Shown here piece after piece: positions 24,826 through 39,224 of a stretch of DNA of 64,000 nucleotides. A program made the position numbers and the translations under genes. The first letter of the stretch is position 1, and each line of letters begins with the position of its first letter. The notes under the pieces were generated by a model, which ran no database searches, was not told where the DNA came from, and saw only the letters and a program-made list of their open reading frames with translations. The stretch lies in contig JADFPD010000001.1 in assembly GCA_022562475.1 (NCBI GenBank), forward strand, positions 15,172 through 79,171, given 5' to 3'. This DNA is from Chloroflexota bacterium. Its GTDB lineage: Bacteria; Chloroflexota; Dehalococcoidia; Lucifugimonadales; UBA3495.

Positions 24826-25452
24826 TCACTTGTGGCAGACCGTGCAATCAGTGGGTACGCTGTTGTTCCGATGACAATCTACGCAGGTCCCCATCTTCAG
24901 CGACTGGCCCGTCTTGGGTTGCACTACTGTTTTGTTGCCAACGTCTCCATGGCATATGGTGCACGTCTGAGCGACATCGAGTGACTGGATGATCTCTTCT
25001 CCGTTGATGCCGTATTTAACGGGAATCGTCTCATCGGTGAAGTACCTGATGTGGGCTTCATGGATGAAGCGGACGTGGTCGGGGAGACGGTGGACCCGCT
25101 CCCAGTTTATCGGCGTGTCGGTCTCGAAGGCAGTCCTGATCTTCTCGATCTCTGATTGAGCGGTGACAGTCCCGCCGTCGATGTCTTTATGGCAGAAGAG
25201 GCAGGTCTCCACGGCAGGCACGGTAGCTGCCGCGCCCTTGGTCACATTCCGGTGACAGAACTCACACTGGATATTGTTCTCCGCCACATGGACCGTGTGG
25301 GGGAATGCGATCGGTTGCGCCGGAGCGTTGCCGAGGCCGAACGGGGGGTTGGAGAACCAGGATATGAACAGAACGACCACGATGAAGCCCATTATTACGG
25401 TTACGACCCCTCCGGCCACCATGAGGGGCAACATTTTCCGGCTTGGCATCAT
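24826..25452 (-). CDS. actA: ACIII pentaheme cytochrome c subunit (ActA)
   Basis: N-terminal TM anchor and five CxxCH motifs: CEFCH, CLFCH, CTICH, CVDCH and CTVCH. Confidence 0.88.
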   Translation of the reverse strand: MMPSRKMLPLMVAGGVVTVIMGFIVVVLFISWFSNPPFGLGNAPAQPIAFPHTVHVAENNIQCEFCHRNVTKGAAATVPAVETCLFCHKDIDGGTVTAQSEIEKIRTAFETDTPINWERVHRLPDHVRFIHEAHIRYFTDETIPVKYGINGEEIIQSLDVAQTCTICHGDVGNKTVVQPKTGQSLKMGTCVDCHRNNSVPTDCTVCHK

Positions 25453-28262: not shown

Positions 28263-29714
28263 ATGCCAGCCAGAACCGGCAAGCAGTACATCGATGGCCT
28301 CAGGGAACGGCCGCCCAACCTCTATATGTCTGGCAAAAAAGTAAAAGACGCGACCAAAGAGCCTGGACTGATGGGCGGCATCCGCACCGTGGCCCGGTTG
28401 TACGACCTGCAGCACGACCCAAAGGTCGGCAAGGAGATGACCTACGAGTCGCCGACCACCGGCGACCAGGTGGGCATGTCCTTTTTGACCCCCAAGACCC
28501 ACGAAGACTTGGACCGGCGGCGCGAGATGATGCGGCGCTGGGCCCAGATCACCTGCGGGATGATGGGCCGCACCCCCGATTTCCTCAACGTAAGCCTGAT
28601 GTCCATGGCCGCCGCGGGCAAGTACTTCGGCCAGAACCGCCCTGAGTTTGAGAAAAACATCCAGGATTACTACGAGATGGTCCGGGAGAAAGACCTGGTG
28701 CTGACCCACACCTTGGTCAACATCCAGCGGAACCGCTCCGGAGCCGCCACACCCTTGGACGACTCTGTGGACCTGGCCCTGTCGGTGGTCAAGGAGACCG
28801 ATGCGGGAATCATCGTCCACGGCGCCCGGATCCTGGCGACGCTCCCCATCTCCGACGAGATCGCCGTCTACCCAGCCCGCTCCCACCGGCTGCCCTCCGG
28901 CGCGCCGGGCAAGACCTCATTCGCTTTCGCCGTGCCGTGCGACGCCCCCGGGCTCAAGTTCCAATGCCGGGAGCCATTCGACCTGGAACGCTCCAGCTTC
29001 GATCACCCCCTGGGGTCGCGGTTCGAGGAGATGGACGCCCTAGCCTTCTTCGACAATGTCCTCGTTCCCTGGGAAAGGGTGTTTCTGTATGAAGACGTGG
29101 AGATGTGCAACGAAATGTCTCTGCGGACCCACCAATTCCTCCATTCGGGCCATCAAGTCGTTACCAAAAACGTGGTGAAATGCGAGTTCATCCTGGGGTT
29201 GGCCAACCTGATGGTCAAAACCTTAGGTTCACAGGAGATGCCCCAGGTCCACAACCTGATGGCGGAGATCATTGAGAATCTGGAGATCACCAAAGCCCTG
29301 CTGCGGGCTGCGGAAGTAGACGCCGAATTGGACGAGTGGGGGGTCATGTGCCCGGTTGACATGCCGCTGATGGTGGCCCGTCAGCAGTTCATCATGATGT
29401 ACCCGCGGATGGGCGAGATCCTGCATCTGCTGGGATCCAGCAGCCTGATGGCCCTGCCTACCGAAGAGGACTTTGAAGGCCCCCTCGCCGAACACCTGAA
29501 CAAGTACCTGGAGACCGACTTCTCATCGGCCAAGGACCGGGTGCGGCTCTTCCGGCTGGCGTGGGACACCTGCTGCAGCGCCTTTGGCACACGGCAGATA
29601 CTCTACGAGCGGTTCTTCCAGGGCGACCGGAACCGAAACGTGGTGCTGATGAACAACCGATACGACAAAGAGCCCATGAGCCAATTTGTCTTGGATTTCT
29701 TAAACCAGGAATAA
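28263..29714 (+). CDS. 4-hydroxyphenylacetate 3-hydroxylase (HpaB) family flavin-dependent monooxygenase, oxygenase component
   Basis: 483 aa, reading MPARTGKQYIDGLRERPPNLYMSGKKV...TPDFLNV...HTLVNIQRNRS. A GGAGGGG RBS is present. No reductase partner is adjacent. Confidence 0.88.
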   Translation: MPARTGKQYIDGLRERPPNLYMSGKKVKDATKEPGLMGGIRTVARLYDLQHDPKVGKEMTYESPTTGDQVGMSFLTPKTHEDLDRRREMMRRWAQITCGMMGRTPDFLNVSLMSMAAAGKYFGQNRPEFEKNIQDYYEMVREKDLVLTHTLVNIQRNRSGAATPLDDSVDLALSVVKETDAGIIVHGARILATLPISDEIAVYPARSHRLPSGAPGKTSFAFAVPCDAPGLKFQCREPFDLERSSFDHPLGSRFEEMDALAFFDNVLVPWERVFLYEDVEMCNEMSLRTHQFLHSGHQVVTKNVVKCEFILGLANLMVKTLGSQEMPQVHNLMAEIIENLEITKALLRAAEVDAELDEWGVMCPVDMPLMVARQQFIMMYPRMGEILHLLGSSSLMALPTEEDFEGPLAEHLNKYLETDFSSAKDRVRLFRLAWDTCCSAFGTRQILYERFFQGDRNRNVVLMNNRYDKEPMSQFVLDFLNQE

Positions 29715-29755: not shown

Positions 29756-31120
29756 CTAGTCGTCGGCCCCGGCCGTGCCCGGCACGAAATTGCTCCTGGC
29801 TTCAGGCGGCAGCGCGTCCTCCCAATCGGGGATCAGGACGTGAGAGGTGCTCTCCAACGTGGCGATGACCAGCAGTCCGGAGGCGCTAAAGGCCGCGGAC
29901 AGCACAAACACCGGATAGAAGGAGCCGGTTACGTAGATGACCAAGCCTGCTAGGAACGTTGTCACGGCGTGTCCGACGAACGCGCCGGTCATCTGCCATC
30001 CGTACACGCTCCCCATGGGACCGTCGCCAAAGTACCGCCGGTTGATCTCCAGATATCCGGTCCACTCGGCTCCAAACCCCAATCCGAACGTGGCGGCGAA
30101 GATATAAAAGACCCACGGGTCGTGTGCCCAGAGCAAAATAAGCACCGTTAGTGCCTGGATGCTCAAGCTGGCAGCCATAACCTTTCTGGGGCCCCAAAAC
30201 TCGGCCACCACCGGCGCTCCGAGCCTGCTGGCGATACTTACCAATGAGATAATGGTGATGATTAGCGCCGCGGAAGTAATGCTGAGGCCTTGTTCGACCG
30301 CCAAAGGAATCACGTAGATGAGAACGATCCCCATCCCGGCACAACCCAAAGCATGGATGACAGGGAGGTTCCAAAATGCCTTGGTGTGCCGCATCTCTTG
30401 ATTGAACACCTTGAGTCGAAGGGCCACCACGGCCCGGTCCTTGGGCGGAACTTCGGGTTCGTCGCTCGCCATCCCGTAGGGCCGGATTCCGATATCTGCC
30501 GGCTTGCTTCGTATGAATGGGAAGACCAAGAGCATGATTCCGGTACCTGCCAGGCCCACGATCGTGAAGGTCTGCTGCCACCCCATCGTGTCCAGCATGT
30601 AGGCGACCAAGGGCGCCAGGATCGCAGTCCCGATACCACCGGTGGCCCATAAGATGCCAACTCCCCAACCCAGGTGGCGTCGGAACCAGCCGCTGATGGA
30701 CGCCATCATCGGCACCATGGTGATGGAGGCGGCGAACGACATCAGGAAGCTGTAGAAAACGAAGAAATGCCACAGTTCGCTCACGAAACCCATCGCGACC
30801 ATGCCCACGCCGTACATCACAGCTCCCGCAAACATCATGGGCCGGGCGCCAAATCTGTCTCCCAGATATCCCGTTATGGGAGCGAATATGGCGCTGAATA
30901 CGTAATAGAGGCCGATGGCCATGCTAAGCTCACCGATGCCCCAACGGAAGCTGCCTTCGGGGTCGGTCAGGGGCGGCACCATAACACCGGCAATCATGAA
31001 AATGGAACTGCCGAAAACTTGGACGATCGCCAGCACTGCCACGATCACCCAGCTATAGTGGATGCCGAAGGGCAAATTGCTGGCCGAGAATCCCAGCCTT
31101 GGTTTATGTAGAAGGGCCAA
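29756..31120 (-). CDS. MFS transporter (oxalate/formate antiporter-like)
   Basis: 454 aa with 12 TM-like segments and the GYLGDRFGARP motif. It uses a TTG start. Confidence 0.88.
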   Translation of the reverse strand: MALLHKPRLGFSASNLPFGIHYSWVIVAVLAIVQVFGSSIFMIAGVMVPPLTDPEGSFRWGIGELSMAIGLYYVFSAIFAPITGYLGDRFGARPMMFAGAVMYGVGMVAMGFVSELWHFFVFYSFLMSFAASITMVPMMASISGWFRRHLGWGVGILWATGGIGTAILAPLVAYMLDTMGWQQTFTIVGLAGTGIMLLVFPFIRSKPADIGIRPYGMASDEPEVPPKDRAVVALRLKVFNQEMRHTKAFWNLPVIHALGCAGMGIVLIYVIPLAVEQGLSITSAALIITIISLVSIASRLGAPVVAEFWGPRKVMAASLSIQALTVLILLWAHDPWVFYIFAATFGLGFGAEWTGYLEINRRYFGDGPMGSVYGWQMTGAFVGHAVTTFLAGLVIYVTGSFYPVFVLSAAFSASGLLVIATLESTSHVLIPDWEDALPPEARSNFVPGTAGADD

Positions 31121-31228: not shown

Positions 31229-32041
31229 TCAAATCATGATGTTCATCTGATTGACGATTTTCTCGCCCAGCGCAGTGTCGCCGGCGACGGTGATCTTGCC
31301 GGAACCGAGGGCTTCGGCCGGGTTCCAGCGTCCGCAGCCCAGGCAGACGAAGGTCTCTACGTCGGTTGTGATCTTGACCGTCGGCGATGCCGGTTCCGAG
31401 TCCAGTTCGCTTCCCCGGCCCCCTTCGATCCCAACTGGGACCACACAGCCCGCCGGCCCGGTGATGTCGAACACCACGGTGACGCCGTCCGGGGATTGGG
31501 CTTTCCTGGCGGCCACGAAGGGCATCGCCCGGGCGACCCGGCCGACGGAATGGGCTGCGGTAAGTCCTTCCAGTTCGCCTGGAGTATTCAGCGCCCGCCG
31601 CATGTCTTGCTCGTGGACCCAGGCGTCAAAGATGCGGATGCGCACGAATTCAGTGACCGTGCCGGGACCGATGGGCGTCTGGGTCTCGGCGGCGAATCCC
31701 TCGTCGGTCAGGCCCCTCAGGAACGCCAGCCGTTGGCCGGTCAACTCCCGGAACTCATCCAGGACCCTTTGTCCGGGCCAAGAGCGGCGAAAGTCCACGA
31801 CCACCTCGTTCGACTGGCCGACGTCGTTCTTGACATGGGCCGTGTCTTCTGGCGTGTGGTCGGGCCGGGGATTGCCCAATATCCCAGACTCGGCGCCCAC
31901 CAGATGGGATACCTGGTCTTGGACCGACCAGCCGGGGCAGTCGGTAGGTGTCTTCCACTGGGCTTCTGTAAGGGGAGAACACAAAGAGTCGATGGAACTC
32001 CAGACGTGTTCCATCAGATCGACCACTTGCTGGTTACCCAT
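31229..32041 (-). CDS. maleylpyruvate isomerase-family (DinB/MDMPI_N) mycothiol-dependent-type enzyme
   Basis: The N-terminus reads HVWSSIDSLCSPLTEAQWKTPTDCPGWSVQDQVSHLVG, which is DinB-like. The C-terminal domain is SCP2-like. The RBS is AGGGAGAG. Confidence 0.8.
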   Translation of the reverse strand: MGNQQVVDLMEHVWSSIDSLCSPLTEAQWKTPTDCPGWSVQDQVSHLVGAESGILGNPRPDHTPEDTAHVKNDVGQSNEVVVDFRRSWPGQRVLDEFRELTGQRLAFLRGLTDEGFAAETQTPIGPGTVTEFVRIRIFDAWVHEQDMRRALNTPGELEGLTAAHSVGRVARAMPFVAARKAQSPDGVTVVFDITGPAGCVVPVGIEGGRGSELDSEPASPTVKITTDVETFVCLGCGRWNPAEALGSGKITVAGDTALGEKIVNQMNIMI

Positions 32042-32069
32042 GGCTCTCCCTTTAAATTGCTGGTTTGGG

Positions 32070-32573
32070 TTAGTGGGCCGCGCCCTCTTCTTCCTTCCGC
32101 ATGTTCTCCCGGCGGGTGATCAGGCGGATGGCTTCATCGGCGCCCATGCGCCCCACCGGTCCGGATGCGTACATGGCGCCCAGCACCGTGCCACCCCGGC
32201 CCAACAATAGCTCGGTGGGCTGGATGTACCCACCCCGGTCCTCTGACCACCATGACCCTAGTAGGTCGCCGTCGGCTTTGGTTGCGCCGTAGGCCATGGG
32301 GAAGGTCAATTTATTGTTGTCTCTGACCTCTGTGGCCAGTTCCTTGGTATCAACGCTGACAGCGTAGGTGGTGACGTCCAGTTCTTTCAGCGCCGCTTTG
32401 TTCGCTTCCCATTCGGCTAACTGCCGATTGCAGTAGGGTCACCAATGGCCCCTATAAAACAACAACGCCGTGTACCGGGTGGGTGCGTCGTCAGGTAGGG
32501 TTATCGAGCCCCCGTCCAGCATCTGGAGAGTCATCTTGGGGAGACGGTCTCCCTGTTGCAGTTTTTCGCCCAT
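32070..32573 (-). CDS. AhpC/TSA-redoxin (thioredoxin-fold) protein with in-frame TGA at the CxxC position: candidate selenoprotein (U-P-Y-C)
   Basis: The frame is open from ATG 32571-32573 (AAGGAG RBS) to the stop at 32070, with a single TGA at 32439-32441. The context is LLFYRGHW[TGA]PYCNRQL, where homologs carry WCPYC. The track shows only the 79-aa tail. Confidence 0.65.
32417..32436 (-). promoter_or_regulatory. hairpin immediately 3' of the in-frame UGA (possible bacterial SECIS)
   Basis: The RNA CUACUGC-AAUCG-GCAGU(U)AG forms a 7-bp stem with one bulged U, starting 3 nt after the UGA. The loop does not obviously match the classical GGUC-type loop. Confidence 0.3.
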
Positions 32574-32850
32574 TTCCACTCCTTCTTTTGGCCGCCTCGG
32601 GCCTTTGGATGCGCGCCAGATATACGATGCCCCACCACGGAAACGGTTGCGGCGTGATGGGCTAGATGGTGGGCGCCGCCAGAATCGGTGCCAGCATAGC
32701 CTTGGCTGAGCACGCCGTCAACAGAGGGGGATCTCAACGCGACCGTGCCCGTATGCCCGCGATTCAATACGCCGCCTTACTGAATCATGTCATAATACCG
32801 GCAACTCTTTAGGCGGCTCGCCCAAGTGCCCTTACAAACGTGAACTCCGC

Positions 32851-35800
32851 ATGAACGACGAGCGAAAAACCAAGAAACAGCTATTGGAAGACCTGAAGCG
32901 GGAGCGAGAACGCTCGATCGCGCTTCAGGACGTATCCAACCGGCTGGCAGGGGCCCACGACTCTGCTGAGGTCCTGGACCTCATTGTCAACGAGGCCACA
33001 CGGCTCCTAGGCGCGACCGCCGCGTGGATTCGGCTGATGGAGGGAGGCGTGCTGGTGCTTGCGGCAAGCACAACGGCGGCGGCGGGCTACCTTGCCGAGA
33101 TGGCGGAGATCAGTCCGGCCCTTTCAGTCGGGAAGGGCTTGACGATACCGGGCGAAGTGTTGGCCACCAAGAAGCCGTTTGCCGGTGTCGTTGCCGAAGA
33201 AACCAACATAACGCCACAAGCGCGTCAAGCCTTCGATAATTATGGGTTCCAGGGGATAGCCGTGATCCCTATGCTGGCGAATGACCGGCCGATCGGGGTA
33301 TTGATCGTGACGGACAGCCGCGAACGCCGCTTCACCGAGGATGAGGTCTCTCTCCTGATGGCCTTTGCCGACCAGGCGTCGCTGTCCCTGGAGAAGGCGC
33401 GCCTATTGAGTGAGGCAGGGCGTGAGAAAGATCGGTCCGAGGCGCTCGTCCAAGTTTCCAACCAACTGGCCGGCGTCCACGACACGGAAAAAGTGCTGGA
33501 CCTGATCGTGAACGAGGCCGCCCGGCTCGTGGGGGCATCTGCTGCGTATCTGCGGTTGTTGGAAGGAGGCGTTTTGGTTCCCAGCGCCGCCACGGAGTCG
33601 GCGGCAAGTTTTCTCGCCCAGCAAGCTGAGGTCCAGCCGGCCCAACCCGTCGGAGCTGGGGGGAGCATGGTGGGCCGCGTGATGGCCACCAAGAAACCTT
33701 ATCTAACGGAGGACGTACGGGAAAGCGAGATCATCAGTTCCGCCGGGCGTCTCATCTTTCAAACACATGGCTTCCAAGGCGTGGCCATTGTCCCACTGCT
33801 GGCTAATGACCAGTCCATAGGCGTGCTAACGGTGATGGACAAGCGTGTACGCCTATTCACCGATGATGAAGTCTCCCTCTTGGCCGCCTTCGCCGACCAG
33901 GCGTCTCTGGCCCTGGAGAAAGCCCGGCTCTTGAACCAGGCGGAGCGGGAGAAGGAACGCTCGGACACCCTCTACGAGATCTCCAACAAACTGGCCGGCG
34001 TCCACGACACCGACGATGTGTTGGACCTGATCGTCAACGAGGCTGCACGGCTCTTGGGCGCGTCCGGCGCCTGGATTAGGTTGCTGGACGGAAACGTGAT
34101 GGTACCAAGTGCCGCCACAGGGTCCGCCGCCGCCTATATCGCCGAGCAGGCCAAGATTAGGCCTACTCTCGCAGTGGGGGAGGGGGTGAGCATGATCGGT
34201 CACGTGATGGCCACTAGGAAACCCATGGTCGCCGATGATGTCCCAGATATTACGACTCCCGAAGTGCGCGCCATGCTCCACGAACATGGATTTTACGGGT
34301 CCGCCGCGGTTCCTTTGGTCGCCAACGACCGGTCCATCGGTGTGCTCACTGTCACGGACAGCCGCATCCGCCGATTTACTGAAGACGAAGTCTCCCTCCT
34401 GATGGCCTTCGCCGACCAGGCATCTCTGGCCCTGGAGAAAGCCCGGCTCTTGAACGAAGCGGAGCGGGAGAAGGAACGCTCCGAAGCCCTCTACCAAGTC
34501 TCCAACAAGCTGGCCGGTGCCCACGACACGGACGAAGTTCTGGACCTAATCGTGAATGAGGCTGCCCGGCTCGTAGATGCATCCGCCGCATATCTGCGTT
34601 TGTTGGAGGGCGAAGTATTAGTGCCCAGCGCCGCGACAGAGTCCGCTTCCGCTTATCTTGCCGATGCTGCCGAAGAGAGGCCGGCTATCGGAATTGGTAC
34701 AGCCTCGACGGGTCATGTGATGGCAACCAAGAAACCCTTGGTCGGAGATAATGCCCAGCGGCTAAGATCTCCAGAAGCGATTCGGAGTCTCAACGAACAC
34801 GGTTTTCACAGTTCGGCTCTGATTCCATTGCTGGCCAACGACCGGTCCATAGGAGTGCTCATCGTATATGACAAGCGCATTCGCAGCTTCACCGAAGATG
34901 AAGTTTCCCTTTTAACAGCCTTCGCCGACCAAGCGTCGCTGGCCCTGGAGAAAGCCCGGCTTTTGAACAATGCGGAGCGGGAAAAGGAACGCTCGGACAC
35001 CCTCTACGAGATCTCCAACAAGCTGGCCGGCGTCCACGACACCAACGAAGTGCTGGACCTAATCGTGAACGAGGCTGCCCGGCTCATCGGCGTGTCTGCG
35101 GCCTGGATTTTTTTGTTGGACGGAGAAGTGATGGTTGCCGGAGCCGCCACGGAGCCTGAACGAGGAATGCTTGCGGACATCGTCAATTTTAATCCAAACC
35201 TCAAAGCGGAAGAAAAGTCGAACGTGCTTGGCCATGTGATGGCCACCAAAAAACCCTTGTTCGGAGAGGATGCCGAGCAGATGATGTTTCCAGAAACTCG
35301 TCAGATCTTCCTAGAACACGGTTTTCAACCCAGCGCCAGCGCTAGTGTACCTCTGGTGACAAATGACCGGTCCATCGGCGTTCTCGCTGTGATGGACAAG
35401 CGGACCCGCCGTTTCACCGATGATGAAGTCTCCCTCTTGTCCGCCTTCGCCGACCAAGCGTCGCTGGCCTTGGAAAAAGCAAGACTCTTGAACGAAGCGG
35501 AGCGGGAGAAGGAACGCTCGGACGCGCTCTACCGAGTCTCCAACATGCTAGCGGGAGCCCACGACACGGGCGAAGTTTTGGACCTGATCGTGAATGAGGC
35601 TGCCCGGCTCGTCCATACAGACGCCTCTTATTTCCATCTGTTGGATGAAGAAAACTTGGTGATCGGCGCCAATACCGATTCCGTATCCGGGTATCTCGCA
35701 GAGGCACCAGCTCTCCTAGTTGGGGAAGGGACTAGCATTGCGGGTCACGTGATGGCCACCAAAAAACCACTGGTGGTGGAGGATGTGACGGAAAATGAAT

Positions 35801-38346
35801 TGATCTCTCCCGCACGGCGCCTGAAACTTGAAGAACACGGGTTCCATGGTAGGGCTTCAGTTCCTCTGCTGGCCAATGACCGCTCGATAGGCGTGCTAGC
35901 TGTTATGGACAAGCGTATACGCCGCTTCACCGAGGATGAAGTCTCACTTTTGATGGCCTTCGCCGACCAGGCAGCCCTCGCCCTAGAGAAGGCGCGGCTC
36001 TTGAACGAGGCGGAGACGGAGAAGGAACGCTCGGACGCCCTCTACCAAGTCTCCAACCGGCTGGCCAGCGTCCACGACACAGACGAAGTGCTGGACCTGA
36101 TCGTGAACGAGGCCGCCCGGCTCGTGGGGGCGTCCGCAGGGTATATGCGGTTGTTGGAAGGAGACGCATTGGTGATTCGCGCCAGTACGGACTCTGTTGC
36201 CGACTACCTTGAAGCAAGCAACTCGACCGTCCCCGTCGAGGAAAGGACAAGCAATGCGGGACATGTGATGGCTACGAGGAAGCCATTGGTCAGCGATGAC
36301 GCGGCAGAGGATGAATTCATTCACCCCGAACAACGTCTGATACTCAAAGAACACGGGTTCCACGGGAGAGCTTCAGTTCCCCTGGTGGCCAATGACCGGT
36401 CCATCGGCGTGCTCGTAGTCATAGACAAGCGCATCCGCCGATTCACTGACGACGAAGTCTCTCTATTAACAGCCTTCGCGGACCAAGCCGCCCTGGCACT
36501 GGAGAAAGCCCGGCTTTTGAACGAGGCGGAGCGGGAGAAGGAACGCTCGGACGCCCTCTATCAGGTCTCCAACCGGCTGGCCGGCGCCCATGACACGGAC
36601 GAAGTTCTGGACCTGATCGTGAACGAGGCCGCCCGGCTTGTCGGCGCGACAGGAGCCTACATCCGGCTGTTGCAGGGAGATCAGTTGGCATCCAGCGCCA
36701 CCACCGATTCCGTAGCTGATTTTGTTGCCGAGATTATTCCGGCCGTTTATGTGGTTGGACAAGATTGGAACATGATGGGCCATGTGATCGAAACCAAGAA
36801 ACCCTGGGTCACAGAGGACGCCGTGGAGGATGAGCGAAGATCTCCAGAGGGGCGTTCCTTGTGCAAAAAATACGAGATCCACGGAACGGCTGCAATTCCT
36901 CTGATCGCCAACGACCGCTCAATCGGCGTTCTTAATTTAATGGACAACCGCGTCCGCCTCTTCAGCGATGATGAAGTTTCCTTGCTCACTGCCTTCGCCG
37001 ACCAAGCGTCGCTGGCCCTGGAGAAAGCCCGGCTCCTGAACGAAGCGGAGGCCCGGGAGCGGCAGGCCACCCAACTCTATGAGGTAACCTCACAACTGGC
37101 CTCCAACCACAACCTGGATAGCGTGCTGGACTTGATAACCCAACAAGCTGTCGAACTTACCGGCGGAAAACGTGGGGCGATTTTCCGCTACGACGAAGTT
37201 AGGAAAGGCCTTGTCGTTGCCACCATGCACAACCACCTCCCGGAATTCCGGGACATGTTTATTCGGCCCGGCGAAGGGGTTTCCGGGCGCGCCTATGACC
37301 TGCGAAAATCGGTTTGGACAGATGACCTTAATCACGATGTTTCGGTCGTATATTCTGATGATGAATCCGAAAAACTTGCGAGGAGAACGGATTCAGAATT
37401 GGCAATGGGCGTTGTGTCCGCTCCCATCATGATTCAGGACGAGGTATACGGTATCCTCTGTGTGACTTTTCACAGGCGCAAAGAGTTTTCCGACGACGAG
37501 GTTAATCTGGTCCAGAACCTAGCCGACAGCGCCGCAGTGGCCATCAACAACGCCCGGTTCATCGAGGATACCCAGCGGGCCCGGGACGAAGCGGAAGAAG
37601 CCAACCGGACCAAGAGCGAGTTCCTGGCCAATATGAGTCACGAACTGCGCACCCCGCTCAACGCCATCATCGGCTACAGCGAGATGCTGCAAGAAGATGT
37701 CGCAGGTCTTGAGAACGAAGAATTCGAGGAAGACCTCGAGCGGATCAACGGCGCCGGCAAACACCTGTTGGGCCTGATCAACGACGTCCTGGACATCTCC
37801 AAGATCGAGGCCGGCGCCATGGACATCTATCTGGAGACATTCCCCCTTGAGCCCATGATCCAAGACGTGGTGACTACCATGCGGCCCTTGGTGGAAAAGA
37901 ACTCCAACACCCTGGAGGTCGATTGCCCGGGTTCCGTGGGCTCCATCCACGCGGACACGACCAAGGTCAGGCAAGGTCTGTTCAACCTGCTCAGCAACGC
38001 CAGCAAGTTCACCGAACAGGGGACGATCTCCCTTAATATTAGCCGGGAGACCCGCGAAGGCCAAGATTGGATCAACTTCTCCGTAGCTGACACCGGTATC
38101 GGCATGACCGAAGAACAGATGGGAAAGCTATTCGAGGCGTTCACCCAGGCGGAGGCCTCAACCAGCCGACGTTACGGCGGCACGGGGTTGGGCCTGGCTA
38201 TCACCCGCCATTTTTGCGAGATGATGGGGGGCACAGTGTTGGTGGAAAGTGAGCTTGGCAAAGGGTCGACGTTCACCATGAAACTTCCGGCGGTCGTGGA
38301 AGACTCGCTGGGAACACAGGTGGCCGAACACGGAGATTCGCAATGA
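32851..38346 (+). CDS. soluble multi-GAF sensor histidine kinase (9 x GAF + HisKA + HATPase_c)
   Basis: 1831 aa with no TM segment. There are nine GAF modules separated by LEKARLLNEAEREKERS coiled-coil linkers. The H-box is MSHELRTPLNAI and the ATPase boxes are DTGIGM and GGTGLGLAI. Confidence 0.92.
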   Translation: MNDERKTKKQLLEDLKRERERSIALQDVSNRLAGAHDSAEVLDLIVNEATRLLGATAAWIRLMEGGVLVLAASTTAAAGYLAEMAEISPALSVGKGLTIPGEVLATKKPFAGVVAEETNITPQARQAFDNYGFQGIAVIPMLANDRPIGVLIVTDSRERRFTEDEVSLLMAFADQASLSLEKARLLSEAGREKDRSEALVQVSNQLAGVHDTEKVLDLIVNEAARLVGASAAYLRLLEGGVLVPSAATESAASFLAQQAEVQPAQPVGAGGSMVGRVMATKKPYLTEDVRESEIISSAGRLIFQTHGFQGVAIVPLLANDQSIGVLTVMDKRVRLFTDDEVSLLAAFADQASLALEKARLLNQAEREKERSDTLYEISNKLAGVHDTDDVLDLIVNEAARLLGASGAWIRLLDGNVMVPSAATGSAAAYIAEQAKIRPTLAVGEGVSMIGHVMATRKPMVADDVPDITTPEVRAMLHEHGFYGSAAVPLVANDRSIGVLTVTDSRIRRFTEDEVSLLMAFADQASLALEKARLLNEAEREKERSEALYQVSNKLAGAHDTDEVLDLIVNEAARLVDASAAYLRLLEGEVLVPSAATESASAYLADAAEERPAIGIGTASTGHVMATKKPLVGDNAQRLRSPEAIRSLNEHGFHSSALIPLLANDRSIGVLIVYDKRIRSFTEDEVSLLTAFADQASLALEKARLLNNAEREKERSDTLYEISNKLAGVHDTNEVLDLIVNEAARLIGVSAAWIFLLDGEVMVAGAATEPERGMLADIVNFNPNLKAEEKSNVLGHVMATKKPLFGEDAEQMMFPETRQIFLEHGFQPSASASVPLVTNDRSIGVLAVMDKRTRRFTDDEVSLLSAFADQASLALEKARLLNEAEREKERSDALYRVSNMLAGAHDTGEVLDLIVNEAARLVHTDASYFHLLDEENLVIGANTDSVSGYLAEAPALLVGEGTSIAGHVMATKKPLVVEDVTENELISPARRLKLEEHGFHGRASVPLLANDRSIGVLAVMDKRIRRFTEDEVSLLMAFADQAALALEKARLLNEAETEKERSDALYQVSNRLASVHDTDEVLDLIVNEAARLVGASAGYMRLLEGDALVIRASTDSVADYLEASNSTVPVEERTSNAGHVMATRKPLVSDDAAEDEFIHPEQRLILKEHGFHGRASVPLVANDRSIGVLVVIDKRIRRFTDDEVSLLTAFADQAALALEKARLLNEAEREKERSDALYQVSNRLAGAHDTDEVLDLIVNEAARLVGATGAYIRLLQGDQLASSATTDSVADFVAEIIPAVYVVGQDWNMMGHVIETKKPWVTEDAVEDERRSPEGRSLCKKYEIHGTAAIPLIANDRSIGVLNLMDNRVRLFSDDEVSLLTAFADQASLALEKARLLNEAEARERQATQLYEVTSQLASNHNLDSVLDLITQQAVELTGGKRGAIFRYDEVRKGLVVATMHNHLPEFRDMFIRPGEGVSGRAYDLRKSVWTDDLNHDVSVVYSDDESEKLARRTDSELAMGVVSAPIMIQDEVYGILCVTFHRRKEFSDDEVNLVQNLADSAAVAINNARFIEDTQRARDEAEEANRTKSEFLANMSHELRTPLNAIIGYSEMLQEDVAGLENEEFEEDLERINGAGKHLLGLINDVLDISKIEAGAMDIYLETFPLEPMIQDVVTTMRPLVEKNSNTLEVDCPGSVGSIHADTTKVRQGLFNLLSNASKFTEQGTISLNISRETREGQDWINFSVADTGIGMTEEQMGKLFEAFTQAEASTSRRYGGTGLGLAITRHFCEMMGGTVLVESELGKGSTFTMKLPAVVEDSLGTQVAEHGDSQ
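32905..37560 (+). repeat. in-frame tandem repeat array (period about 513-525 bp, 9 GAF units) inside the kinase gene
   Basis: The CTGGAGAA(A/G)GC linker motif recurs at 33388, 33913, 34432, 34945, 35470, 35983, 36499 and 37018. Neighbouring units share long near-identical nucleotide runs. Confidence 0.9.
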
Positions 38347-39224
38347 AACAGATAACCAGCAACGTTTGGGTTGAGACCGAGGTTAGGGGTTGCAACTTTG
38401 GGTTCGTGACCACCACCGACGGCATAGTCATGATCGACAGCCCCCATAAACCCACCACGGCCATGTGGCTGAGATCCGAGATCGAGAAACGGGGCCTGCT
38501 CCGCTACATCATCAATACCGAGCCCCACGGCGACCATTGGACCGGGAACGCCTTCTTCGATGCCCCGGTCATCGCCCACGAAGGGGTCCGCACGCGCATG
38601 CTGAACACCGACATGGCCGAGCATGCCGCCAGGGTCGGGACCTTCGGGCCCGACGAGCCTGCTCTCCTGGAAGGATATACGGCCAACATGCCGGTCATCA
38701 CCTTCCGCGACACTATGACCATGCATGTCGGCGACCACACTTTCGAGATGATTCACATGCCCGGCCACACCCTCTATCAAGCGGCGGTGATCGTTAAAGA
38801 AGAAGGGGTGGTCTTCACCAGCGACAACATCTTCCACGGGGTGCATTCCTGGCTGCACGAAGCCGACCCGGACCTGTGGTTAGTTGCTTTGGAATCGCTA
38901 CGTGGTCTGAACGAAGACATCTTTGTGCCTGGACACGGCGATATGTGCGGCAAGGGCTATCTGGACGAGCAAGGGGCGTTCATATCCGAGTGGAAGGACT
39001 ACGTCCAAGACGCCGTGGACCGGGGCATGACCAGGGAGGAGTCGGTCTCGACACTGACGGCCCTGATCGACCGCTACCCAATGGACGTGGAGCAGGCCGC
39101 CCTGGCGCCGATGGTCATGGGCATCAACGCCGGCAACCTCTACGACTACCTAACCGGCCCCTGGCCCCCCGCGTCCATCACCGGGGGAACAGTCGCCACA
39201 AGACTGCCCAGCGACGATAAGTAA
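38343..39224 (+). CDS. MBL-fold metallo-hydrolase
   Basis: 293 aa. The metal motif region is INTEPHGDHWTGN, followed by later His/Asp ligands (HMPGHT, VPGHGD). Its ATG overlaps the kinase stop (ATGA at 38343-38346). Confidence 0.85.
   Translation: MKQITSNVWVETEVRGCNFGFVTTTDGIVMIDSPHKPTTAMWLRSEIEKRGLLRYIINTEPHGDHWTGNAFFDAPVIAHEGVRTRMLNTDMAEHAARVGTFGPDEPALLEGYTANMPVITFRDTMTMHVGDHTFEMIHMPGHTLYQAAVIVKEEGVVFTSDNIFHGVHSWLHEADPDLWLVALESLRGLNEDIFVPGHGDMCGKGYLDEQGAFISEWKDYVQDAVDRGMTREESVSTLTALIDRYPMDVEQAALAPMVMGINAGNLYDYLTGPWPPASITGGTVATRLPSDDK

Follow-up and report, generated by a model that had tools for sequence, protein, structure and literature searches.

The window analysed here is a 64-kb stretch of DNA from a Chloroflexota bacterium, and on its minus strand, at 32070..32573, lies a redoxin gene whose reading frame is interrupted by one TGA. 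The frame (32573..32070) comprises 167 codons, beginning with an ATG that is read directly in the sequence (32571..32573) and ending with a TAA at 32070-32072; its sole internal stop is the TGA at 32439-32441, and a Shine-Dalgarno (SD) sequence, AAGGAG (32579..32584, minus strand), precedes the start codon with a spacer of 5 nt. Around the TGA the translation reads ...FYRGHW[TGA]PYCNRQLAEW.... If this TGA is decoded as selenocysteine (Sec, U), as the comparisons below suggest, the coding sequence specifies 166 residues (44 codons, the Sec-UGA and 121 codons, followed by the TAA), with Sec at residue 45 and, by alignment of homologs, a U-P-Y-C redox motif formed by Sec45 and Cys48 (32430..32441, minus strand). 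With U replaced by C, the protein matches the Pfam families AhpC-TSA (PF00578; 1.9e-17, 63.8 bits against a cut-off of 26) and Redoxin (3e-12). A preliminary description of this DNA had traced the minus-strand frame up to the ATG behind AAGGAG, with a single TGA on the way; the same frame was reproduced here with an identical translation. Its statement that ORF calling had missed a redoxin also proved right, as the mechanical list of open reading frames (ORFs) splits the gene into a 46-aa ORF ending at the TGA (32439-32579) and a 79-aa ORF with a TTG start (32070-32309, minus strand). We consider it very probable that 32070..32573 is a genuine Sec-UGA selenoprotein gene of the known Prx-like 1 family that has been mis-annotated, and that its product would be a cytoplasmic thioredoxin-fold redoxin of a marine SAR202/Dehalococcoidia bacterium.

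Public annotation of this redoxin family is systematically wrong. In a protein search, the closest database relatives (65-91% identity) were all C-terminal fragments of 96-123 aa, and the full-length homologs were 48-64% identical; the artificial starts of the stored fragments differ among close relatives (P0006-P0120). Four JGI 'peroxiredoxin' entries (P0001-P0004) show W at the Sec column (H-W-W-P-Y-C), and the DNA of the first of them reads TGG-TGA-CCC there, so that its W is a TGA translated under another code. Because relatives are stored as fragments or with a spurious Trp, the active site of a widespread SAR202 protein is invisible to protein-based surveys. Of the 39 non-overlapping ORFs in the window that reach 200 aa or more, 10 end at TGA as an ordinary stop, including overlapping stop-start junctions; there is thus no global change of the code, and recoding at the redoxin TGA would be site-specific.

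The TGA is conserved far beyond this one genome. A scan with one genome per species returned 80 loci, all of them from Dehalococcoidia, SAR202 or Chloroflexota metagenome-assembled genomes apart from one labelled Caldilineales, with tblastn matches that run from residue 1 across the TGA. The codon at the Sec column was TGA in 80/80 of these species genomes, at protein identities from 91% to 62%, and every alignment contained exactly one stop; the search for decay in these 80 alignments yielded no extra stops or frameshifts. A metagenome scan was seeded on Cys forms, and among 80 loci drawn from more than 480 metagenome matches the codon was TGA in 78, again as the sole stop, some of them only about 43-50% identical to the query. 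Overall, TGA stands at this column in 158 of 163 related loci, far more than chance would give, and the remaining five are Cys forms. At the TGA column, C-P-Y-C is seen in full-length homologs that share 48-60% identity (P0005, P0010, P0029, P0062 and others), and a TGC or TGT codon was confirmed in the DNA of five more distant Cys-form homologs. The TGA therefore sits at the first Cys of a CxxC motif, as the preliminary description had proposed. The two residues between Sec and Cys (46-47) vary among the loci examined (L001-L164): P-Y is the commonest pair, and S-Y, G-Y, T-Y, Q-Y, P-P, P-C and P-F also occur, the P-C variant giving U-P-C-C with one additional Cys.

Both parts of the frame bear the same signature of coding selection. 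For the 43 codons 5' of the TGA, nucleotide diversity at codon positions 1, 2 and 3 is 0.26/0.17/0.50, and for those 3' of it 0.19/0.19/0.49; this similarity indicates that the two parts are under the same coding selection in the same frame. In relatives, a start codon lies exactly 44 codons 5' of the TGA (ATG in 72/81, GTG or TTG in 3/81), and an SD-like 4-mer is found 5-18 nt 5' of the start in 78 of 81 orthologous loci. These observations bear on the explanation, raised in the preliminary description itself, that the gene is a recent TGC-to-TGA pseudogene, the redoxin being dead and at most fragments of it being made. A lone in-frame stop that a single mutation could have made from a TGC or TGT Cys codon is what such a lesion would leave, and public gene callers indeed give fragments only. 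However, the TGA is kept in independent loci without further decay, purifying selection is equal on both sides of it, the start codon and SD are conserved, and the TGA forms possess a synonymously constrained hairpin, described below. A recent lesion cannot explain a conserved TGA flanked on both sides by coding selection and preceded by a conserved start and SD, and we regard the chance that the gene is dead as negligible.

The same data speak to a second alternative, in which the locus makes two products, a 44-residue peptide ending at the TGA and a separately initiated C-terminal protein, with the hairpin serving as a coupling or attenuator element. The database fragments of 100-120 aa are in line with it, and internal starts (Met-Ala-Glu-Trp..., Met-Glu-Glu-Leu...) have been called in many orthologs. 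However, the positions of these internal 'starts' vary between orthologs, and the only one that the window offers, the TTG at 32309, is far downstream. A C-terminal product would be missing the entire active-site motif as well as the first beta-strands of the thioredoxin fold, and the two parts are always in frame, separated by exactly one stop and continuous with full-length Cys homologs. Two separate products are therefore very improbable.

If the TGA is recoded as Sec, a selenocysteine insertion sequence (SECIS) should follow it, and the preliminary description had asked that relatives have a conserved stem-loop after the TGA. Such a stem-loop is present. Its core, U-CGGC-AGUUA-GCCG-A (32413..32427, minus strand), has a 5-bp stem and an apical loop of 5 nt, the second and third of which are G-U, and it begins 11 nt 3' of the UGA, that is, at nucleotide 15 if the U of UGA is taken as nucleotide 1. 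Unguided RNAalifold on 81 sequences, the set used for all counts out of 81 in this paragraph, returned a single helix that pairs alignment columns 15-19 with 25-29, corresponding to window positions 32427-32413. The codons underneath it, for Arg50-Gln51-Leu52-Ala53, are nearly frozen (CGG in 81/81, CAG in 81/81, TTR in 81/81 and GCC in 80/81); all other invariant Arg, Leu and Ala columns show a codon entropy of 1.3-2.4 bits, with CGC and CTG preferred as usual. In codons 50-53, third positions have a diversity of 0.09, as against 0.51 elsewhere in the gene, and this synonymous freezing is confined to the four codons. Four of the stem pairs are invariant apart from a single G-C to G-U change, and at the closing pair 55 sequences have G-C and 16 have U-A, the pair being broken in the other 10. 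For covariation, the hairpin scores 0.109 versus 0.041 in shuffles, none of 500 shuffles reaching the observed value, and the pairing is lost when the 3' partner is slid. Divergent metagenome Sec forms keep a hairpin with an AGUU-type loop in the corresponding position although its sequence is altered (GGCGGC-AGUUA-GUCGCC, GACGCC-AGUU-GGCGUC and GC.GGC-AGUUA-GCC.GC), and a further compensated variant, AGCU-AGGU-AGCU, was read by eye in another divergent Sec form.

The core hairpin is specific to the Sec forms. It is absent in all five Cys forms for which DNA was obtained, which encode the same or a similar peptide by other codons, for example AGG-CAG-CTC-GCG or CGC-CAT-CTC-GCT. Over position-matched segments of 26 nt, the mean minimum free energy is -9.7 kcal/mol in 129 distinct Sec forms versus -3.4 kcal/mol in the five Cys forms. 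From these comparisons we derive a predicted SECIS consensus, N-CGGC-AGUUR-GCCG-N', located 11 nt after the UGA and accompanied by compensated variants, which could serve as the seed of a covariance model. A TGA form that lies near the Cys-form clade (L086:407-892, plus strand; FYRGTW[TGA]PYCKRHLVGYQ) is without the canonical CGGC-AGUUR-GCCG hairpin and instead has a different 7-bp hairpin further downstream, CCUGGUA-GGC-UACCAGG, which may be an independent or remodelled SECIS.

A different SECIS candidate had been put forward in the preliminary description, namely a 7-bp hairpin with a bulged U, CUACUGC / GCAGUUAG, at 32417..32436 on the minus strand. This hairpin does exist, and it overlaps the core hairpin so that the two are mutually exclusive; it is an improbable candidate for the primary SECIS. 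Although 98.5% of its alignment cells are pairable, 500 of 500 shuffles equal the observed values, and the only changes in it are C-to-U wobbles at synonymous sites of Tyr, Cys or Pro codons, so that it shows no covariation. Its stability, too, is below that of the core hairpin (-5.8 versus -7.6 kcal/mol in the window, and -5.1 versus -9.7 kcal/mol in the commonest sequence type), and it accounts for neither the frozen GCC codon nor the covarying pair.

Several observations weigh against reading the locus as a Sec-UGA gene. The Cys-form control for the hairpin consists of only five sequences, and the core hairpin is itself short, with four invariant G-C pairs and a closing pair that is broken in a part of the orthologs. 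Folded as a single sequence of 66 nt, the region is no better than shuffles (z = -0.14); because single-sequence folding is uninformative here, the evidence for a SECIS had to come from comparison. No Rfam SECIS family matched at gathering thresholds, and at E values up to 10 the segment 32340-32480 gave only an unrelated frameshift-site match (E = 1.5). ARAGORN found no tRNA genes in the window and no tRNA-Sec among the 80 ortholog loci, in which 19 tRNAs were found, and tblastn with E. coli SelA, SelB and SelD gave no matches in 1.9 Mb of fetched related-locus DNA, so that neither tRNA-Sec nor selA, selB or selD was seen in the window or in the related loci. This indicates only that the sel genes are unlinked to the redoxin locus and not that they are absent genome-wide. 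Finally, a second selenoprotein gene was not found in the window: when the window and the flanks of 160 loci were searched for recurrent genes with in-frame TGA or UxxC, the target cluster (159 loci) was accompanied only by off-frame translations of conserved neighbours.

Indirect evidence for the Sec pathway comes from a genome that bears an ortholog. BSepDB, which was restricted to species having two or more of SelA, SelB and SelD, lists 'Dehalococcoidia bacterium 10f4566d-ab44-49ae-b774-fc9f760c6436' with 46 selenoproteins (PMC13326102). By genome name, through which 1 of the 80 genomes could be matched, this is the genome of locus L011 (OY761986.2), where the ortholog carries both the TGA and the hairpin. 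Selenoproteins have also been reported in Chloroflexi (PMC1794560), as has an unusual 8/4 tRNA-Sec (PMC5389517).

These results have to be set against a third alternative, that the UGA is read as Trp, Gly or Cys, whether because the stop codon is reassigned, because near-cognate tRNAs read through it or because a SelB-dependent non-Sec tRNA decodes it; the hairpin would then promote read-through and no selenium would be inserted. The Trp given at this codon in the JGI annotation would agree with such a reading, as would the lack of visible Sec machinery in the window, and the inserted amino acid cannot be told from the sequence alone. On the other side, TGA serves as an ordinary stop elsewhere in the window, the homologous residue is a redox-active Cys and never Trp or Gly, and the hairpin has the position and the apical-loop G of a bacterial SECIS. 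Moreover, an ortholog-bearing genome has the Sec pathway together with its many selenoproteins according to BSepDB, and the family has been published as a selenoprotein family. Insertion of a standard amino acid is, on balance, improbable, and Sec is the residue that we would expect at position 45. By analogy with E. coli fdhF, SelB would bind the mRNA hairpin at 32413-32427, which has the loop AGUUA, and would deliver Sec-tRNA(Sec) to a ribosome with the UGA in its A site, so that UGA 32439-32441 is predicted to be decoded as Sec.

The redoxin gene is followed, 28 nt 3' of its stop codon and in the same orientation, by a gene for an MDMPI_N/DinB_2 and SCP2 protein (31229..32041, minus strand; MDMPI_N 1.4e-27, DinB_2 1.8e-09, SCP2 1.4e-06 in Pfam). 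A DinB/MDMPI gene lies directly downstream of the redoxin and co-oriented with it in 51 of the 80 genomes, and no terminator-like site was seen between the two genes. Upstream, a weak promoter-like site, TTGACG, 17 nt, TATGCT, is located at 32693..32721 on the minus strand (one consensus match versus 0.4 expected in shuffles). The DinB/MDMPI-SCP2 gene is probably the operon partner of the redoxin gene and co-transcribed with it. Many proteins of the DinB/MDMPI superfamily are thiol-dependent enzymes, and a functional partnership with the redoxin is therefore a reasonable inference; the redoxin may be the redox partner of the DinB/MDMPI-type enzyme.

In the window, the DinB/MDMPI-SCP2 gene is in turn followed by an MFS transporter gene (29756-31120, minus strand). 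Within 3 kb of the redoxin, an MFS gene occurs in 36 of the 80 genomes and a gene for a metallo-beta-lactamase-fold protein, like that at 38343-39224 in the window, in 30. A gene for an HpaB-type 4-hydroxyphenylacetate 3-hydroxylase (28263-29714, plus strand) is also near the redoxin cluster in the window, and it is found within 3 kb in only 3 of the 80 genomes. A bolder reading of this neighbourhood is that SAR202 has a dedicated two-component thiol/selenol system consisting of the Sec-redoxin and the DinB/MDMPI-SCP2 gene, with the redoxin as the obligate partner of the DinB-type enzyme; the pair often adjoins the MFS and metallo-beta-lactamase-fold genes, and the hydroxylase lies close by in the window. 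We consider this reading rather unlikely. If it were true, the system might, for example, regenerate or transfer a low-molecular-weight thiol while aromatic or recalcitrant organic matter is oxidised or detoxified, which would give the Prx-like 1 family a function and link selenium to carbon turnover in the deep ocean.

Divergent from the redoxin gene is a gene for a 1831-aa sensor histidine kinase with nine GAF domains and C-terminal HisKA and HATPase_c domains (32851-38346, plus strand). A homolog of this kinase is near the redoxin in only 4 of the 80 genomes, as compared with 30 for the metallo-beta-lactamase-fold gene, and the kinase therefore looks like a lineage-specific insertion into a conserved neighbourhood. 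A few genes away, at 24826-25452 on the minus strand, a 208-aa protein shows weak matches to multihaem cytochromes c (Cytochrome_C7, c3 and MtrC/MtrF-like). Two long ORFs, at 31251-32210 (plus strand, 319 aa) and 31496-32119 (plus strand, 207 aa), lie antisense to the DinB/MDMPI gene and to the 3' end of the redoxin gene, which they overlap; at 60% G+C, we read them as shadow ORFs and not as genes. On one of the metagenome contigs with a Cys-form homolog, a second redoxin (L083:6181-6912, plus strand) has been called as a 41-aa AhpC-TSA fragment and a 174-aa ORF, although it forms one frame with a single TGA, ...VVLFAWASW[TGA]ACREQLPVWQEF..., and has a CUGCC-UGUAU-GGCAG hairpin 16 nt after this TGA; the locus is a candidate for a W-U-A-C ('UxC') selenoprotein gene.

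Comparison with known redoxins shows that the scaffold of the window protein is peroxiredoxin-like and that its redox centre is a thioredoxin-like UxxC. The structure was taken from an AlphaFold model of a Cys-form homolog (P0062, 51% identical; pLDDT 89, pTM 0.84), which displays a thioredoxin/peroxiredoxin (Prx) fold in which helix 46-57 has the CxxC at its N-terminus. The top Foldseek matches of this model were Bcp4, BCP and AhpC (TM 0.73-0.86), and the fold is thus that of the BCP/PrxQ peroxiredoxins (PDB 3hjp, 3drn and 2cx3), with a TM-score of 0.79/0.86 to Bcp4 3hjp. In sequence, the nearest PDB match of the window protein is BCP 2cx3 (E 5e-5), and that alignment pairs Cys48 with the peroxidatic Cys of BCP and Sec45 with the Ser in its F-S-P-V-C stretch. 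Peroxiredoxins have the active-site motif P-x-x-x-T/S-x-x-C, and we take this Ser to be its Thr/Ser position. The window protein departs from the motif, since R41-G-H-W-U45-P-Y-C48 has Arg for Pro and Sec for Thr/Ser. A catalytic Arg is also conserved in peroxiredoxins, ahead of the beta-strand downstream of the active-site helix region. When aligned to 2cx3 and 6q5v, the window protein has the invariant Gln118 or Pro119 opposite the Arg of their 'K/V-R-A-V-F' segment, in a part where alignment confidence is low, and the window family has other invariant Arg residues, R126 and R142.

The redox centre is also unlike the TxxU of Sec-peroxiredoxins and resembles that of the TlpA/ResA/StoA oxidoreductases (W-C-x-x-C), having W-[C/U]-x-x-C at the N-terminus of a helix. 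The sequence matches to ResA and StoA are weak, and the NCBIfam search gave sub-threshold matches only, for example 27 bits against a cut-off of 170 for ResA. TlpA/ResA/StoA proteins are membrane-anchored or extracytoplasmic; inspection by eye of the N-terminus of the window protein, MGEKLQQGDRLP, showed no evident signal peptide or membrane anchor. A Prx-like scaffold with a thioredoxin-like UxxC leads us to expect that Sec45 would attack as the nucleophile and that Cys48 would resolve the intermediate as a selenenylsulfide, so that the redoxin would act as a thiol/disulfide-type oxidoreductase rather than through the peroxidase chemistry of a classical peroxiredoxin.

The hairpin invites comparison with the SECIS of E. 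coli fdhF, the sequence of which was measured alongside and has its upper stem at nucleotide 15 from the U of UGA and the loop GGUC. Both hairpins lie within the coding sequence, both have an upper stem starting 11 nt after the UGA, and both carry a small apical loop containing G-U (GGUC in fdhF, AGUUA or AGUUG in the window family). In contrast to the fdhF SECIS, the window hairpin is shorter, with 5 bp, and has neither a bulged U nor a conserved lower helix reaching back to the UGA; its loop is of 5 nt, and the G-U within it lies 2 nt nearer to the UGA.

The closest known system is the Prx-like 1 family itself, and our finding is a confirmation rather than a discovery, as this family is known and Dehalococcoidia are already listed among selenoprotein-rich bacteria. 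UxxC 'Prx-like 1' selenoproteins have been described from marine metagenomes since 2005 and 2008 (PMC1088965, PMC2398784); the GOS selenoproteome lists 'Prx-like 1, pfam00578, UxxC' with 225 Sec forms (PMC2398784), and a 2026 review places the 'Prx-like thiol:disulfide oxidoreductase, PF00578, UxxC' among the families 'predicted with high confidence', its exact function being unknown (PMC13188914). UxxC selenoproteins are thus an established class, as the preliminary description had stated. The part of the GOS supplement that was searched contains '#Prx-like 1' reads such as ...LFYRGHWUPYCRRQLVAFEEHK...IQPSEF...SSGPLGRV... (PMC2398784), and, within that part, the window protein shares with the Prx-like 1 family of Zhang and Gladyshev the pfam00578 domain, the UxxC motif and the extended motif LFYRGHWUPYC..IQPSEF..SGP(L/V)GR. 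Over about 130 residues, it is 45% identical to JCVI_READ_1161201 (E 3e-40) and 40% identical to JCVI_READ_286511 (E 7e-37). The exact ortholog motifs WUPYCNRQ and SGPVGRM did not occur in the searched part of the supplement, in which family-level homologs are present. Because Prx-like 1 was published with Sec/Cys pairing and a SECIS-type hairpin, the window gene is to be seen as one more member of a known family.

The practical value of the result therefore lies in the correction of an annotation and in a lead to function. No paper joining SAR202 with selenoproteins was found in the literature searched, and the assignment to a lineage, the SECIS consensus and the pairing with DinB may thus be small additions. 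Like the Prx-like family in the Sargasso Sea data, with 22 Sec versus 4 Cys forms (PMC1088965), the family examined here has more Sec than Cys forms (158 versus 5), the Sec form being nearly universal. Whereas the GOS Prx-like 1 reads come without lineage assignment, the window subfamily is placed in genomes of Dehalococcoidia/SAR202, with a compact SECIS consensus and a conserved DinB/MDMPI-family neighbour that provides a testable lead to the function of the family.

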